The position numbers and the translations under genes were made by a program. Positions 8,593-59,784 of a stretch of 64,000 nt of DNA are shown one piece after another. The stretch is from Nitrosopumilaceae archaeon. Lineage in GTDB: Archaea > Thermoproteota > Nitrososphaeria > Nitrososphaerales > Nitrosopumilaceae. How positions within the stretch are numbered: position 1 is the first letter of the stretch; every line of letters starts with the position of its first letter. Under the pieces are notes generated by a model, which was given only the letters and a program-made list of their open reading frames with translations, had not been told where the DNA came from and made no database searches. The stretch lies in NCBI GenBank assembly GCA_965207375.1, contig CBDBMG010000002.1, forward strand, positions 1 through 64,000. Direction: 5' to 3'.

Positions 8593-10494
8593 CGTAAATA
8601 AGACGTAAAGGTAGCCTACACTAACATAAGCACATGCAGCGTAGAAGTGAGCATGCAATCACACTTCTGCAATATATATACCACTTACCAACCTCACGTG
8701 CAGGCACGTGAGGGAACATTTCCGGACGGAGGATATTTTCTGCCTAATTCACTACGTTCAACCGGCAGAAAATACACATCCTAAGAGTTTCGCATTTTTT
8801 GCGCTTTAGCTTCTGTAACTGGCTACAAAGGATATATCGTTTGTAGACAAAGCTTACTGAGTAGTATATCACATAAGTAGCGAAAAGTGCTAGTAGCCAA
8901 AGTGATGACGGAGGTGATGATGTTCCAAAGACCCGAGGCGAGTACATTAAATATAGTGCATGCAAAGGTGTACGGAATATATATTCACATAACCATAGCT
9001 GCATGTAGTTATATCTTTCCTTAAAGATCTAACAAAAGTGATATATATTGTATAATATCACAAACCTGCATGAACATCCTATATATACGGTACCGCTCAG
9101 TTTAAACTTGACACTTGCACGCGTGTGTCACTGTAGTCGCTCGCAGATTTTGCCAGGGAACTCGCGAGTTACGCGCGAGTGCACAACAAATCGATCCTCG
9201 TGACGAGTCATATGCACGTGAAGTGCACTCGAGAGAAGGTTACCCTGCTCGCGAGCTGTATCACGTTACGTGTGCTTGTTAGTGCCTCGCGAGTTATGCA
9301 CGCGTGTAGTTTGTCTCTTGTCGTGATTCTAGCAATACTCAGCATTATCATCTAACATACCAGCTGTGAAACTACAGATAACCATCCTGGAGTAGATTTC
9401 ACCGTCGACGAATCAAGCGCGCGAGCGCTTATAGTTGTAATACGGGTGCCTAACACGTGTTTATAATAAGCTTCTTATATTTTAGGGCGCCAATAACACG
9501 TGCTAGTGATTTAGTAGTTTTTGTAGCTTGTTGCAGTCTTTGGGAAGCAAAGGAAAGGCCTACAGTAGATTGGAAAAGAGGTAATACTGTAACTATACTT
9601 CATTGCTGTTGGTTAAAGTCTTCCTGCTCGGTTCCACACAATTAAATTATATCACTGAATGTCTTAAAACGTTTGATAGATCTCTAGCACTGAATATATG
9701 ATAGAGCTAGGCCTTTCCACTTTATTAATTTCACCCCATGCATTAGCCACGCGAGTGCATCTGTTTGCGTGCGATAGGCCTCTGGCGTGCCTCGTGGCGT
9801 AGCTCGTGCATGTCGTGTCGAGTGTATGCTCGCACGACAAGGATCCTGTTTACGCATCGATTTCCTGTAAAAAGAAAGGCTGCTGTTTCATCGCTTCGCA
9901 TCAGTTGAGTTCTTTACCATAGGTTATATCTTTTTAGATATTTAGATAGAGGAAAGAAGTGGCTTTCGGGTCATATATAGTATTAATCTACTCGCGCTAA
10001 CAGAAGGTTTGCTGTTAGCCTTATATTTAAAGCATGCGCAAGTTTCTATAAATGCAAAATAAATTCGCGGTTTAAGGGATAGGGATTAAATCTTGTAGAG
10101 GTGCTAGAGAAAATGTTTCATTTGTGCATGTATGTATGTAGCTACCCAGCTGCAATTCTATACTTGAGCAGACACATGCAGTATACAATGCTGCATGGGT
10201 GGTGAATGATAGCTATATTGCTAGCTACTTGTTTCCTTACTTTTTATGTCGATCCCTACTTCCCTTTTTAAATTCAAATTTTTTAAAACTTGTTTATTTA
10301 CTTTTTATGGTATACTGTAGTATACTAGCTAGGTAGGTATTATTAACATTTTATAATTGTTAATCTACTGCTATTGTAATAGTATTTTAATAACGTCACG
10401 TGAGCAAAGACCCATCACTAAGGAACACATAGCAACGCATATAAATTAAATTCTTCGGCTTTATGCTACAGTACTTTAGCCTTTTAATAGTATA

Positions 10495-11005
10495 TAGAAT
10501 AATAAAAAATTGAAAATTTAAATGGTGAGTAGGGATCGAAGGATCCACTAGTACAGTACTACAAAAAAAGGAATAAGATTCTGGCACGAATGAACACTGA
10601 AGATTCTGGCAAGAGATAGTTTATAAAAATTTAATCCCTACTTTTGGCAAATGTACTATAATGACTAATATGAGCCAAAAGTAGGGATTAAACTTTTATA
10701 AATTATCTCTTGCCAGAATCTTCAGTGTTCATTTGTGCCAGAATCTTATTCCTTGTTTCCTTACTTTTTGTAGTACTGTACTAGTGGATCCCTTCGATCC
10801 CTACTCACCATTTAAATTTTCAATTTTTTATTATTCTAGTTTGTAAGCTTTTTATAGGGCATTATAATAATCATTCAGGTGCCTATATAGCAGCTACACA
10901 AAATTATACAGGCGCTAACATAATTATGGCTTCTTTACAGGCGCTTGTTAACAACCTGCTTGTGTGGCAAAGCAGCTATGCAAGCAAATTACATCCTTTA
11001 AAAAC
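10495..11005 (-). mobile_element. Family B palindrome-terminated element, copy 1 (palindrome 10495-10838, body cut by MULE)
   Basis: Near-identical to 53513-54396; 25-nt loop at 10649-10673. Confidence 0.9.
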
Positions 11006-14000
11006 GGGTGTATGGAAAACCCGGAATCCCAGAACAGCCCGGATCAGCCGGAACCAACTTATTTTCGCGAATTGACCCACGTGATCTATCGTTGGTGGCT
11101 TGGTGCATTTATTCGGTATATAATCAGATAGGTGACGTATCTAATGTAATGTACGAGTGAAGATCGAGAGGACTTCGATTGATAAGCACTACCCCGAGGT
11201 CCGAGGAAGTCTGGTAAACGAGACGAGTATTTGCCGGTTTGATATCAATATGACTCGAAGTGGTTTGGCAAACATTCATGATCACCAGTTAGGATCCGAA
11301 GTAATGTGGACAAGAAGGGCTTACCAGTTTGCACGACCTTCAGTTGCTGTTGTGTACTATTTAGAATATATTAAGTTATTATCACGTGCTTAACTTGCAT
11401 TACATTCTTACAACCACAGCTATGGCTAAAACATTTTTAATTAAATGATCATATATTATATATAATTGCCATCTTATGTAGAAGTCATGACACCTAATAA
11501 TCATTAATCAATCATAAATGAACGTGATCTGGCACTACATCATCAATCCAAGGCTGGCGAAGATGAACCCTTTGCGAACATCTGTCAAATGTTCACGTAC
11601 TTCATCAGGAATCATCAGTTCATGGGGCAAGAACCTTGGTTCAGCTGTACGAATGCAGTGAATGCTGATGTGGTAATGTGAATTACTAGGGGTTGATGGA
11701 GTTTTTGATTCGCCCCCTTGTTCCCTGTATGGCCTGCATTCTTTCCGTGCAACTACTAAATCATAGGGTGGTTCCGTACTAGTAGAATGAAAAGGTATTC
11801 GACATGACTGACAAATTTGAATACGAGTAGTCAGTATTTTAATGTAAAAGGGTATGGAGAAATCACATGGGATGGTGGTGGATTCCATGAGCTTTGTAAA
11901 AAACTGGATGATGGCCATGGACTTGGCAATGGAATTTGAGGAGGAGGTACAACACCATACATCATGTTTGGCTGCATAGATCCATATGTGGGCATGTACG
12001 TGATAGGTAGATGATGGAGATGGGGATATCCAAGTATCCTTCACAGATTCTATAGTGGCGGCTGGCATAAAACATGATCCACCATCCATATGCTGCTCTT
12101 GGATGGAACAATGTGTACTTCTGTTATCCAAACTAAGCCGGTCAACAACTGTTTTATTAGTCGTCATTTGCTTTCGCTTTCGATTATTCTTTGGAGCGCC
12201 ACCCTTCTCACCAGCACCTTTAGGAATCCCATGTAATGCCAACTTACTATAATTTGGAGCACATTTCTGCCTTATCAGCCATTGAGTAAATTCCTTCAGT
12301 TTTCCATTTATCTCTGCACTTGCAATAGTATGTGCACAAAGTTTGTATGTGCTGAACATAGGGCACTTTGAGTCACATTTAAACTGTCCACTGAACTTGG
12401 CTGGTGTACTCACTAAATGCGGGCAATTACTACTGGTCGATGCTACCATACGATCATAACTTAAGTTTGCCCCTCCTGGTACTGCAGCTATTAGTGTAGT
12501 GTCTACTACAAGTGATGAGGCTTTTTGCCAAATTGCTTTAAGTGTATCTTTGTGAATTTTACAGCCTGACTCTAGAAGAACATCATAAGAAACTGACAGC
12601 TCACTCGAACTTGAGGACTCATTGAATTCTTCGCTACCTTTGTCAGCAGGGTGACCAGCCACACACTAGCCACGGATGGGTGACCATCACTCTTTGCTAG
12701 GAATACAGAAAGATTACACAAGCATTCTTTTACTTCTTTTAATGCCCTTTTACTTTTTGCCTCACTGTCAAATTTCACTGAATTCAATAAGCGCCAGTCC
12801 CCGCGATGACTGAAGGCTCTTTCAATATTCTTTTCATATATCAAAACTAATTCTTGAGCATGATCAACAAAATCAGTGAGTGATTGGGATTTTCTGTCAA
12901 CCTTCAATTTTAAGACATTATTGACACTCACTAGCATTCGTGTAGAATTTTTCAGGTGGGTTCCCCAATAGTGCTTCTTTTCTGACACTTTGAATCATAT
13001 GATTTCGCACAATTGAACTTTTTTCAGAAACAAACCAATTATAGAACTCAGGCTCGTGACTGTCATTTTGTGACAGAGCTACTCGTTTACCAGATACTTC
13101 AAAACAATTCCAACGTTCTTCTAAAGCTGTCAGTTTAGATGCAAAATCACATGGATCAGTAGCATCTGTTAGGCCTAACTGGGTCTGCTCAGAATTGGTA
13201 GTGCCAAAGATATCAGCCAAAATTTCCTCACAAATGGCAGTTTCCAAACTGATGGACTTCAACTTGGACTCAACATTATCACGGAAGTGTTAAAACAACG
13301 CAAATGTAATGCGTTTGGAAAAGCATTTTCAAATGCATTAACTAGGGCCTGCTCCCCATCTGTTCCAAAAGCTTTAAAGGTAGTAGTAATATCTGGAGCT
13401 GGTAAGCAAAGTAGCTATAAGCTTCAGTGTTCATTCTCTGATGAATCAGAGTTGGGCCAAGAAAAACTGGTGGCTTTCCAGTACGCTTTGATGTAAAAGC
13501 TTTGTGTAAAAACACTACGGGTGTTACAAAAAATGCTCCCAAATTAAATGTTGGGTCAACACTAAGAACACTAAAATTCTCTGGGTCAGTACAGCACAAC
13601 TGTACCTGCTTTAGCTGTAAATCTGTGGCTAGTACACATAGTGACTGTGGAGCTGCTTGTACTGCTCGAACAAATTGAACTGCGCCTGCTTCAGTACATT
13701 TACAACGCTCCATCATCACTGCAAGATCATCTGTGTGGTTTGAGCCAAAAAGTTTCTTGCGTATATCTGAAACCTGTCTTTTACTGCGAGGCAATTTTCC
13801 AATACCAGTATGATCCCCCTTTACCATTTCTGAATCGACCAATTCAAAAGCACTAGAAGGCTTGCTCCCTTTAGCCACCTCCTTTATTCTCTGTATAGTG
13901 CTTGGTTGTGTCCGTTTATATGGAGTAGATGTAGAATTCTTTGAATTTTTATGTGGTACATTATTAATTGTATGCTCTTCTCCTTTGAACTTGTATTGCA

Positions 14001-53512: not shown

Positions 53513-55291
53513 CTAGAATGATAAAAAATTTAAAATTTAAATGGTGAGTAGGGATCGAAGGGATCCACTAGTACAGTGCTACAAAAAGTAAGGAAACAAG
53601 AAATAAGATTCTGGCACAAATGAACACTGAAGATTCTGGTAAGAGATAATTTATAAAAGTTTAATCCCTACTTTTGGCTCATATTAGAGCTGTGCAATAC
53701 TATCGATACTACCCGGTATCGTGATATCAAGCAGTATCGATCTACTTCAAGCTTTGGTATCGTAGGTATCGATTATGCAACATATAACCAGACAGGTGAT
53801 GATTTTGGGTCACATTTTCAACTGATTTGGATCAAACTTGTTGGATAAGATCTCTATTAATGTGATAAAATTTGCAACTTCATATACTAAGTGTGAAAAG
53901 ACCAAATTTTATATGCACATTAGCCTGGTTATCTCATGTAGGCCATATCATGTGAAATGTCAATACCTAAAGTATATCGTGATACCCTGACTATGGTATC
54001 GTGATACGCAAACTTGAGGTGGTATCGCACAGCTCTAGCTCATATTAGTCATTATAGTACATTTGCCAAAAGTAGGGATTAAACTTTTATAAATTATCTC
54101 TTACCAGAATCTTCAGTGTTCATTTGTGCCAGAATCTTATTTCTTGTTTCCTTACTTTTTGTAGCACTGTACTAGTGGATCCCTTCGATCCCTACTCACC
54201 ATTTAAATTTTAAATTTTTTATTATTCTAGTTTGTAACCTTTTTATAGGGTATTATAATAATCATTCAGATGCCTACATAGCAGCTACACAAAATTATAC
54301 AGGCGCTTACATAATTATGGCTTCTTTACAGGCGCTTGTTAACAACTTGCTTGTGTAGCAAAGCAGCTGTGCAAGCAAATTACGTCCTTTAAAAACAGCG
54401 AATATATTTGTCCAGCTGCTTGTCGATGTTCAGCTTATAATCAGGAACATCGATAAGTGGCTGGCGCGTAAATTAGTCTGGCGCGTCAATTGGTCTGGCG
54501 TGCGAGACAAAGACTGGTGTGCGTTTCAGTTGAATTAGTTTAGTTATAATTTATGGAGTCGTATAAAGTATAATCGTTTTGGAATAGTTGTTAGTTATCA
54601 AGTAATGTAACAGTGGATGTGGCGTAAGTTGATGCTGTGTGTTTTTGTGTAATGGGATAGCAACTACGTGTGTATGCGCATGCGCAACATTTAAGTATTG
54701 TAGCCTAGAATGCTTCTAAGCCATAACACAATATTCCCTCTGAAAACATCGAAGACATATGCAACATTCCATGCATGAAGCGATTTGTAACTATAAAACG
54801 GCAGGTGCACACTATTGTACCTGTTTACACCTTGTATGGAATGTTGTGGTCAAGCTGAAATTGTTTACGCATTCCAATCGATAGAGAAGAAAGTAAAGAA
54901 AGGAAGTATAAAAGAATCACCATGGCGCAGTGGATAAATCGTCTTCGGAACAACAGTTTCGTAAATGGGAAGGGATAACCTTTGCTGTGCTGAATTTCTG
55001 GAGCCATACACCTAGCGAAACCCGGTCTTACGGCAGGCAGGCCGGCAGGCTGGCAGGCCGGCAGACGAAATCCAGGTGATTTTCGAATTTTTTAAAATTC
55101 ACTATAGATCGAAATAATCGACATTTCACTTTGTTAAACAAATGTAAAGCATTATTATAGCTGTGCCAGTGCGTTTAAGTTGGTTTTTTCGGCTAAAGTA
55201 TATTGTAAGGTGGGTTTTTAGACGTGTGAAAATTCCGCATTCCATACATTCCTTATCGATCCCTATTATTAAGTACTACCGTACTTAATGA
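53513..55291 (-). mobile_element. Family B palindrome-terminated element, complete copy inside the 3' LTR
   Basis: Empty site given by the other LTR (ttaca|atatc), no TSD; on the minus strand T|TC...CTAG|T; 166-bp arms 53513-53678 / 54065-54230. Confidence 0.95.
53685..54037. mobile_element. hAT MITE inserted in the palindrome loop
   Basis: TIR tagagctgtgc.atac / gtatcgcacagctcta; perfect TSD GCTCATAT; related ends near 62669 and 63273. Confidence 0.93.
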
Positions 55292-59232: not shown

Positions 59233-59784
59233 ATACCACTTCTGACACCATGTAGCGTTTAGGGGATTATTAATAGCAAAGAACAGCAACTGAACACAGG
59301 GTATAACCACACTCTATTTATAGTACAGTGGGAAAACCTATGGCTAGGATGTTTACAAAGGTGACAGTAAGCTTGTTTACAAAAACAAGTGTGTTTACCT
59401 ATTACAATATCACCATAAAACAAAGTGCTAATAAAAGTGTAAATTATAACTAATTCCATACACAATAACAATGTGTGTTACAGGATTCTATTTACTTAGC
59501 TATAGTGTATGCATTATGTCACAATTGGGAATGCAATATTTTTCATGTTGCAGTGATAAATATACTGAAATAAAAATGTGTGATTTGGAACTGTTTTCCA
59601 AAATCCGGTCACATTTAAATAAATCATAAAATAAATAAATCATATATCAGAGCTGTAGCAAGCTGAAATGAAGTGGTATGACCAGGAGGAGAGTGATGAT
59701 GTGTGACCAAAGTGCAGAAAATTCGAATTTCATGAATATAATTTTTGTGAACTAACATTTTGACAAGAAGAGAAGTAAAAGGCT

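Follow-up and report, generated by a model that had tools for sequence, protein, structure and literature searches.

How does the loop of a long palindrome come to read in opposite directions in two copies of the same mobile element? The question is raised by a stretch of 64,000 nucleotides, here called the window, which corresponds to positions 1-64000 of C3, one of the four contigs (C1 to C4) of a genome record filed as archaeal. Two copies of a repeat lie in the window (Table 1), and both have a palindrome on the left and a body on the right, with 94.6% identity between the bodies over 167 nt. As the first-pass annotation of this DNA had claimed, the loop sequences of the two copies are exact reverse complements of each other when a MITE inserted in copy 2 and one 8-bp duplication are subtracted, the spacer that is left in this copy being TCATATTAGTCATTATAGTACATTT. 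When up to two mismatches were allowed, the copy 1 loop had a single further match in the window, which is the exact, minus-strand match in copy 2, and two loop matches per window were obtained in none of 100 shuffles. We call the two forms of the loop flip and flop.

All copies of the repeat that we found in this record lie in C2-C4 (GC 37%), and none lies in the 2.16-Mb contig C1. Since C2-C4 contain Helitron RepHel genes, MITEs and (TA)n microsatellites, we consider that these contigs, and with them the window, are eukaryotic DNA, probably that of a host, which has been binned with the archaeon.

Anatomy and class of the element

The element starts at its 5΄ end with a near-perfect palindrome of about 345 nt, the arms of which are 155–165 nt long, share 97–100% identity with each other and enclose a loop of 13–25 nt. 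Its ends are 5΄-CTAGAAT...TTAATGA-3΄. In family B, to which both window copies belong, the intact element measures 1,385 bp (C2:121967-120583), and in the related family A it measures about 1,075 bp. The body had at first been taken to be about 170 bp long, and this has to be abandoned: copy 1 is truncated at its 3΄ side, the other copies run on past its break with AGCGAATAT..., and the full element reaches position 55291 in copy 2. Seven of the eight family B copies extend for about 1 kb into a conserved 410-bp tail, which is common to about 50 further elements. In copy 1 the two arms are complementary at 95% over a segment of 85 nt and at 100% over two more, of 48 and 27 nt, and its palindrome, taken as single-stranded DNA of 345 nt, is predicted to fold into one hairpin with an energy of -161.4 kcal/mol (z = -36.9).

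At the other extreme, the element finishes with ...TCGATCCCTAC-TA-TTAAGTAC-TACC-GTACTTAA-TGA, and this arrangement of a hairpin followed by TGA terminates nearly all of the 49 tail ends listed. Of 35 motif matches, 31 have TACC as the 3΄ hairpin loop and none has GGTA, the flipped form. In addition, an inverted match of 11–12 nt connects a site in the distal arm, 35 nt inward of the 5΄ end, with the sequence just ahead of the 3΄ hairpin. Family B pairs AGTAGGGATCGA with TCGATCCCTACT and family A pairs AGTAGGGATTG with CAATCCCTACT, so that the repeats of the two families co-vary, changing in step. No coding function is apparent in copy 2, whose largest ORF has only 60 aa, and an Rfam search of this copy for structured RNAs gave no match.

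Table 1. Coordinates of the two window copies, of the empty sites and of the head-to-head pairs. Positions without a contig name refer to the window; a slash within a sequence or position marks the insertion point.
Feature	Position	Strand	Remarks
Copy 1 distal (5΄-terminal) arm	10494/5-10648 (start at 10494 or 10495)	+	11 nt of the other arm missing
Left repeat GTAGGGATCGA in copy 1 distal arm	10529-10539	+	
Copy 1 loop AAATGTACTATAATGACTAATATGA	10649-10673	+	25 nt; flip isomer, AAATG...ATGA with the body to the right
Copy 1 proximal arm	10674-10839	+	CTAG at the body-side end
TCGATCCCTAC in copy 1 proximal arm	10795-10805	+	
Copy 1 body fragment	10840-11005	+	element 3΄-truncated at ~11005
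Copy 2 distal arm	53513-53678	+	C of CTAG at 53513 is the first base of the element
hAT-like MITE in copy 2 loop	53685-54037	.	353 bp
Copy 2 loop	54040-54064	+	25 nt; flop isomer
Copy 2 proximal arm	54065-54230	+	
Copy 2 body and 3΄ end	54231-55291	+	whole copy 2, 53513-55291
Right repeat TCGATCCCTA of copy 2	55256-55265	+	
Copy 2 3΄ hairpin TTAAGTAC-TACC-GTACTTAA	55269-55288	+	
Copy 2 terminal TGA	55289-55291	+	
Empty site of copy 2 (..cctattaca/atatcacc..)	59406-59407	+	paralogous
Second empty site	C2:28652/28651		matches copy C2:232430-231312
Head-to-head family A pair 1	C3:437011-438104 and 438125 onward		
Head-to-head family A pair 2	C3:646617-647664 and 647732 onward		

Insertion is precise and occurs without target duplication at the two paralogous empty sites that we could compare, and at both of them the outer base of the palindrome coincides with the 5΄ boundary of the element. 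The empty site of copy 2 is a paralogue of its flanks, about 270 bp long and devoid of the element, which is located 4 kb downstream (59251-59523). A Tc1/mariner-like MITE with TA target duplication was also considered as the identity of the repeat, and it is ruled out by both empty sites. A precedes the element in 27 of 28 copies and T follows it in 24 of 25; copy 2 itself lies between A and A.

By the definitions given in PMC11417382 and PMC5148889, these sequence features place the element among the non-autonomous Helitron-like transposons. The element combines repeats and a 3΄ stem-loop of the HLE2 type with an A-T insertion of the HLE1 type. As in HLE2 (Helitron2/Helentron, with the HINE/DINE-1 type derivatives), there is no target duplication, the ends are asymmetric, a short inverted repeat is present near both ends and a stem-loop follows the right repeat at the extreme 3΄ end. 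HLE2 elements are recognized by terminal inverted repeats of 12–16 nt and a following stem-loop, to which the 11–12-nt matches described here, the left one subterminal, correspond; furthermore, a RepHel gene with DUF6570, the HLE2 marker domain (PMC11417382), is present in the same contigs. The element departs from HLE2 in that its 5΄ hairpin is of about 345 nt and not of a few tens, its left repeat is placed 35 nt inside, it inserts between A and T, as HLE1 does, and not between T and T, and its ends are 5΄-CTAG and ATGA-3΄. With the canonical Helitrons (HLE1, as defined in PMC11417382) it shares the duplication-free A-T insertion and a short hairpin near the 3΄ end, but it does not have the 5΄-TC and 3΄-CTRR ends, and it carries terminal inverted repeats and the giant 5΄ palindrome. 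Hairpins on both termini have been reported in some Helitron2 elements (PMC5148889). The family is thus Helitron-like, with a giant 5΄-terminal palindrome and mixed HLE1/HLE2 features. Our literature search, which left aside the supplementary figures of the Helitron papers, found no report of loop isomers in Helitron terminal hairpins, and a review deals with the Helitron and rolling-hairpin models apart from each other.

The insert in the loop of copy 2 had been described as a hAT MITE. The insert is indeed present, with the terminal inverted repeats TAGAGCTGTGC.../...GCACAGCTCTA and the 8-bp target duplication GCTCATAT at 53677-53684 and 54038-54045; the two features that suggest the hAT label are this duplication and the TAGAG...CTCTA ends, and we therefore call it hAT-like. 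The MITE landed exactly within the hairpin loop, and one further copy of it exists (C4:534332-534667, 96%). About 200 bp upstream of copy 1, and in opposite orientation to it, there is a piece of another related family, derived from its 5΄ end (..GAAGTAGGGATCGACATAAAAAG.., 10249-10292).

Loop orientation and arm symmetry across copies

Our catalogue comprises 44 palindromes from the 2.1 Mb of eukaryotic contigs C2-C4, each of them oriented by the side on which its body lies. Four could not be given a body side, although one of these was later placed from its body match, and three carry other loops (family C). In family B, with a 25-nt loop, five copies are flip and three are flop (n = 8), or 4:3 when independent loci are counted, C3:216661 and C4:35640 being one locus in a duplicated region. 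Family A, which has loops of 13–20 nt (AAACCT..GAAGTGA) and arms about 81% like those of family B, divides into 16 flip and 16 flop copies (n = 32), or 16:15 over 31 independent loci. Among the nine youngest family A copies, with at most two arm-to-arm mismatches, the proportion is 5:4. The ratio of roughly 1:1 that had been put forward for young copies is thus what we find, in the youngest as well as overall (16:16 and 5:3), although a 1:1 ratio does not separate flipping during transposition from flipping in resident or source copies.

Orientation does not follow the length of the loop: the variants with 13, 15, 16 and 20 nt were all found in both orientations, and loop length, taken as a lineage marker, showed no association with orientation (permutation p = 0.35). 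Closely related copies can be of opposite type. In family B, the body of copy 1 (flip) is 98.8% identical to that of C2:343486 (flop), and in the family A tree near-identical copies can differ in orientation. This maximum likelihood tree was built on 32 rows from proximal arm, body and tail, and orientation needs 11 changes on it, against a mean of 11.0 in shuffled data, in which 320 of 500 replicates required no more than this. Resolution of the tree is poor, with 18 of 29 inner branches open and five rows with long end branches, and those rows for which no 3΄ end had been mapped were truncated at a set length and may include unrelated DNA. The few well-supported branches alone require at least five orientation changes. 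A family B clade of three loci is entirely flip, and an arm site, TTATT[C/T]CTTG, follows the orientation in all eight copies of this family. At two places a pair of family A elements meets head to head, the 5΄ palindromes being separated by nothing but (TA)n (Table 1), and in each pair one partner is flip and the other flop.

Among public contigs, the family B loop with its stems had no match in genome_contigs or in metagenome_contigs, and the inner-stem pattern had none in metagenome_contigs. The inner-stem pattern is found at six loci, or 12 if two mismatches are allowed, in four other MAG records. We looked at these 12 loci: four had no assignable side, one had an unrelated loop, and the seven that could be oriented gave six flip-like and one flop-like loops. 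Because their flanks are not orthologous to this genome, these loci add counts only.

The two arms were aligned for every copy. Leaving out columns of ambiguous alignment in A/T runs, no arm asymmetry is common to three or more copies in one direction, save at the loop-adjacent base, which flips together with the loop. In family A, mismatches between the arms affect 130 of the 4,615 positions compared. Differences diagnostic of subfamilies, among them a 7-nt indel and the divergence of about 19% between families A and B, occur in both arms of a copy. New copies thus start with symmetric arms that drift apart later, and, to judge from these alignments, the changes that arose in the active lineage must have passed by copying between arms. 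Since the arms are symmetric, inversion of the whole palindrome and inversion of its inner part would look alike, and the loop alone is informative. Copies with truncated distal arms were considered as traces of fold-back synthesis and were discarded as such, since C2:63274 and C3:261206 both keep the remainder of the arm upstream, behind an insertion.

Possible routes to an inverted loop

We infer, with moderate confidence, that the loop flips by strand switching between the two identical arms, which is the most likely mechanism. Identical arms would permit the loop to be copied backwards. During synthesis through the palindrome, the growing strand would jump to the complementary strand within one arm and return within the other, and the outcome of this double switch would be a loop replaced by its exact reverse complement with nothing else altered. 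Inversion of the loop has happened many times in the history of the family, and, if the transposase meets the same hairpin in either isomer and moves both with equal efficiency, the copies would come to be near 1:1. The switch may take place in source copies within the chromosome, or in the additional synthesis that accompanies rolling-circle transposition, when the single strand would have to fold into this hairpin. As a lone single strand has no complementary template, a flip at the time of transposition would need a double-stranded or hairpin-primed stage.

There is precedent for such an event. Template switching has been described as a source of short inversions flanked by inverted repeats and as a means of repair of the stems (PMC5453318, PMC8794818), and microinversions associated with hairpins are reported to be recurrent (PMC3123225). 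Template switching would therefore account for the exact inversion of the loop, for its recurrence and for the symmetry of the arms without any special enzyme, and the breakpoint of a switch inside the arms would be invisible because the arms are symmetric. As in the minute inversions of plastids and in the four-point template-switch model, the spacer between inverted repeats is here exactly reverse-complemented, and the hairpin-bounded inversions described in PMC3123225, PMC5453318 and PMC8794818 are likewise recurrent and homoplastic, with symmetric stems. Hairpin-loop inversion is itself a known mutation type, which is found here at equilibrium frequency. In contrast to those small inversions, however, the stems of 155–165 bp are here part of an active mobile element, so that the flips may be tied to its replication, and the equilibrium ratio is seen even in very young copies.

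In the initial interpretation of the locus, the isomers pointed to HUH proteins, and transposition was held to pass perhaps through a self-priming hairpin intermediate, with inversion between the arms after insertion as the alternative. The link with HUH proteins has gained from the absence of target duplication, the A/T insertion, the 3΄ hairpin, the RepHel genes in the same contigs and a palindrome that starts at the 5΄ boundary; a self-priming hairpin intermediate is possible. In a parvovirus-like hairpin transfer, an HUH Rep protein would nick the base of the 5΄ palindrome and the folded-back hairpin would be copied, and each transposition would then redraw flip or flop at about 50:50 and restore perfectly symmetric arms. 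We regard this as a tentative alternative, rather improbable as the data stand. Equally tentative is a form of it in which the giant 5΄ palindrome is a resolvable hairpin, where Rep would nick either of two symmetric A/CTAG junctions at its base, the palindrome would be made anew by fold-back synthesis in every transposition, with flip or flop drawn at random and the arms kept perfect, and a rolling-hairpin-like step would be placed within rolling-circle transposition. The first nucleotide of the element is also that of the palindrome; a mirror image of the A/CTAG junction is consequently present at the inner boundary, on the lower strand, and this geometry speaks for a link with transposition. 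A purely incidental palindrome would not be predicted to start exactly at the inferred cleavage site.

Several observations agree with hairpin transfer. The element is Helitron-like, and its 5΄ boundary is the outer base of the palindrome at both empty sites; A precedes CTAG in 27 of 28 genomic junctions, and does so on the body side too, on the lower strand. The isomers are near 1:1, 5:4 in the youngest copies and unclustered on the family A tree, the arms are symmetric at birth and share the subfamily variants, the 7-nt indel among them, and duplicates that stayed in place are concordant in eight of eight cases (see below). In AAV2, moreover, rolling-hairpin replication randomises the orientation of the terminal hairpin (PMC11575299). 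The element resembles this parvovirus in the HUH-type initiator family, in a terminal palindrome with the cleavage site at its base and in isomers near 1:1 (PMC11575299). AAV, however, has a linear single-stranded genome, whereas the element is a chromosomal transposon copy, its palindrome is present only at one end, the 5΄ one, and only its loop is informative.

Other observations speak against hairpin transfer. The movement of Helitrons is thought to use rolling-circle or circular single-strand intermediates (PMC5714925, PMC5148889), and the products of AAV2 rolling-circle copying keep one hairpin orientation (PMC11575299), so that a plain rolling-circle transposon is not expected to flip. 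The hairpin is located at the 5΄ end, from which it is unable to prime synthesis. Neither linear molecules with hairpin ends nor head-to-head dimers were seen in the contigs, those of the public runs being short. Orientation in family B is partly inherited, as seen in the three-locus clade that is all flip and in the arm site that tracks it in eight of eight copies, and the four other MAG records give 6:1 and not 1:1. Finally, none of the RepHel loci in the contigs could be linked to this Helitron-like family as its autonomous partner.

Does the loop flip in copies that stay where they are? A region of 57 kb is present twice in the contigs (C3:198507-255794 and C4:1-54047, 99.7–99.9% identical), as two haplotypes or as a very recent duplication, and several other segments are duplicated at 95–99.6%. 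As an in-place control, a generic search was carried out for paralogous palindromes with both flanks matched, and doubtful pairs were re-scored. The orientation of the spacer was kept in all eight resolved pairs (flank identity about 95–100%), only two of which belong to this Helitron-like family (C3:216721/C4:35804 and C2:33872/C2:237971); in addition to these eight, two pairs were unresolved and three items were artefacts, produced by head-to-head elements or transposon-internal flanks. Flipping in resting copies is thus not very fast. The corresponding likelihood ratio, about 2–5 for transposition-linked flipping, is rough, treats unrelated palindromes as comparable and is not decisive. The 5:4 proportion in the youngest family A copies and the existence of near-identical but discordant copies fit better with flipping at or near transposition than with slow flipping in place.

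The same control bears on reciprocal homologous recombination between the arms of resident chromosomal copies, which can be likened to what occurs in plastid inverted repeats or in the 2-micron plasmid, and which would be slow and reach equilibrium in old source lineages. The length of the arms (155–165 bp) and their identity (97–100%) would suit this process, for which the equilibrium expectation is also 1:1, and an inversion of 2 kb in the 57-kb region indicates that in-place inversions occur, or are assembled, in these contigs. However, the inverted segment (2,037 bp, C3:209886-211922, inverted between the two copies of the region) has blunt breakpoints without long flanking inverted repeats and is not an example of the process, resting copies do not show an excess of arm homogenisation, and the eight in-place duplicates are unchanged. 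A spacer of 13–25 nt should, in addition, make synapsis of the duplex arms sterically hard, and we consider arm recombination unlikely.

We also weighed whether the isomers were generated during assembly, since reads or k-mers shorter than the arm would orient the loop at random and give 1:1. Random, unclustered orientation, as observed, would indeed be the result, and public contigs from short reads do break within the repeat. As regards this locus in other individuals, most of the stretch is contained in six of nine public runs; the contigs of four public runs are short and break inside the repeat, and none joins the palindrome to its flanks, while the word depth in public runs is 10^4 to 10^6 over positions 9500-11010, as in a high-copy repeat, with unique cover from 11047. 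Against such an artefact, the repeat-rich contigs are 0.43–0.93 Mb long and the archaeal chromosome is one piece of 2.16 Mb, which suggests long reads that would span the 345 bp; moreover, the eight duplicated palindromes agree in orientation, and in family B orientation tracks a sequence variant in eight of eight copies. An assembly origin is accordingly very improbable.

Strand switching between the arms is therefore the reading that we prefer. Helitron-like copying is known from very few experimental systems, and a 5΄ hairpin of 345 nt that starts from the cleavage site and occurs as equal isomers in very young copies offers a natural read-out of how strands are handled in transposition. 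If orientation is reset with each jump, a step of hairpin resolution would be common to parvoviruses and the rolling-circle transposons of eukaryotes. If it is not, the family would provide a clean example in which loop inversions at long palindromes of the nucleus can be counted and their rate estimated.

RepHel genes and probable host DNA in the records

Matches to Helitron_like_N occur at four places in C2-C4. A RepHel reading frame at C3:311471-319221 contains DUF6570, Helitron_like_N, PIF1 and a C-terminal ubiquitin hydrolase (UCH) domain, and is interrupted by in-frame stops; a second copy of it, of 5.9 kb and with 96% identity, is found at C2:183520-189340. Around the RepHel loci, no adjoining family A or family B termini could be linked to those genes.

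Related Helitron-like palindromes are also present in MAG records of Anaplasmataceae, Poribacteria, Acidobacteriota and Binatia. They cluster in one part of each record, which is near the record end in three of the four, as for instance at 1.31–1.37 Mb of a 1.38-Mb 'chromosome' and at 2.26–2.50 Mb of a 2.57-Mb contig. This clustering suggests that host DNA has been joined to the bacterial assemblies, in which case the 'archaeal' genome record and four other MAG records would all carry host (eukaryotic) DNA. In C3, a family B-like 3΄ tail fragment (326514-326863) is preceded immediately upstream by a tandem array with a period of 26 bp (C3:325996-326506).
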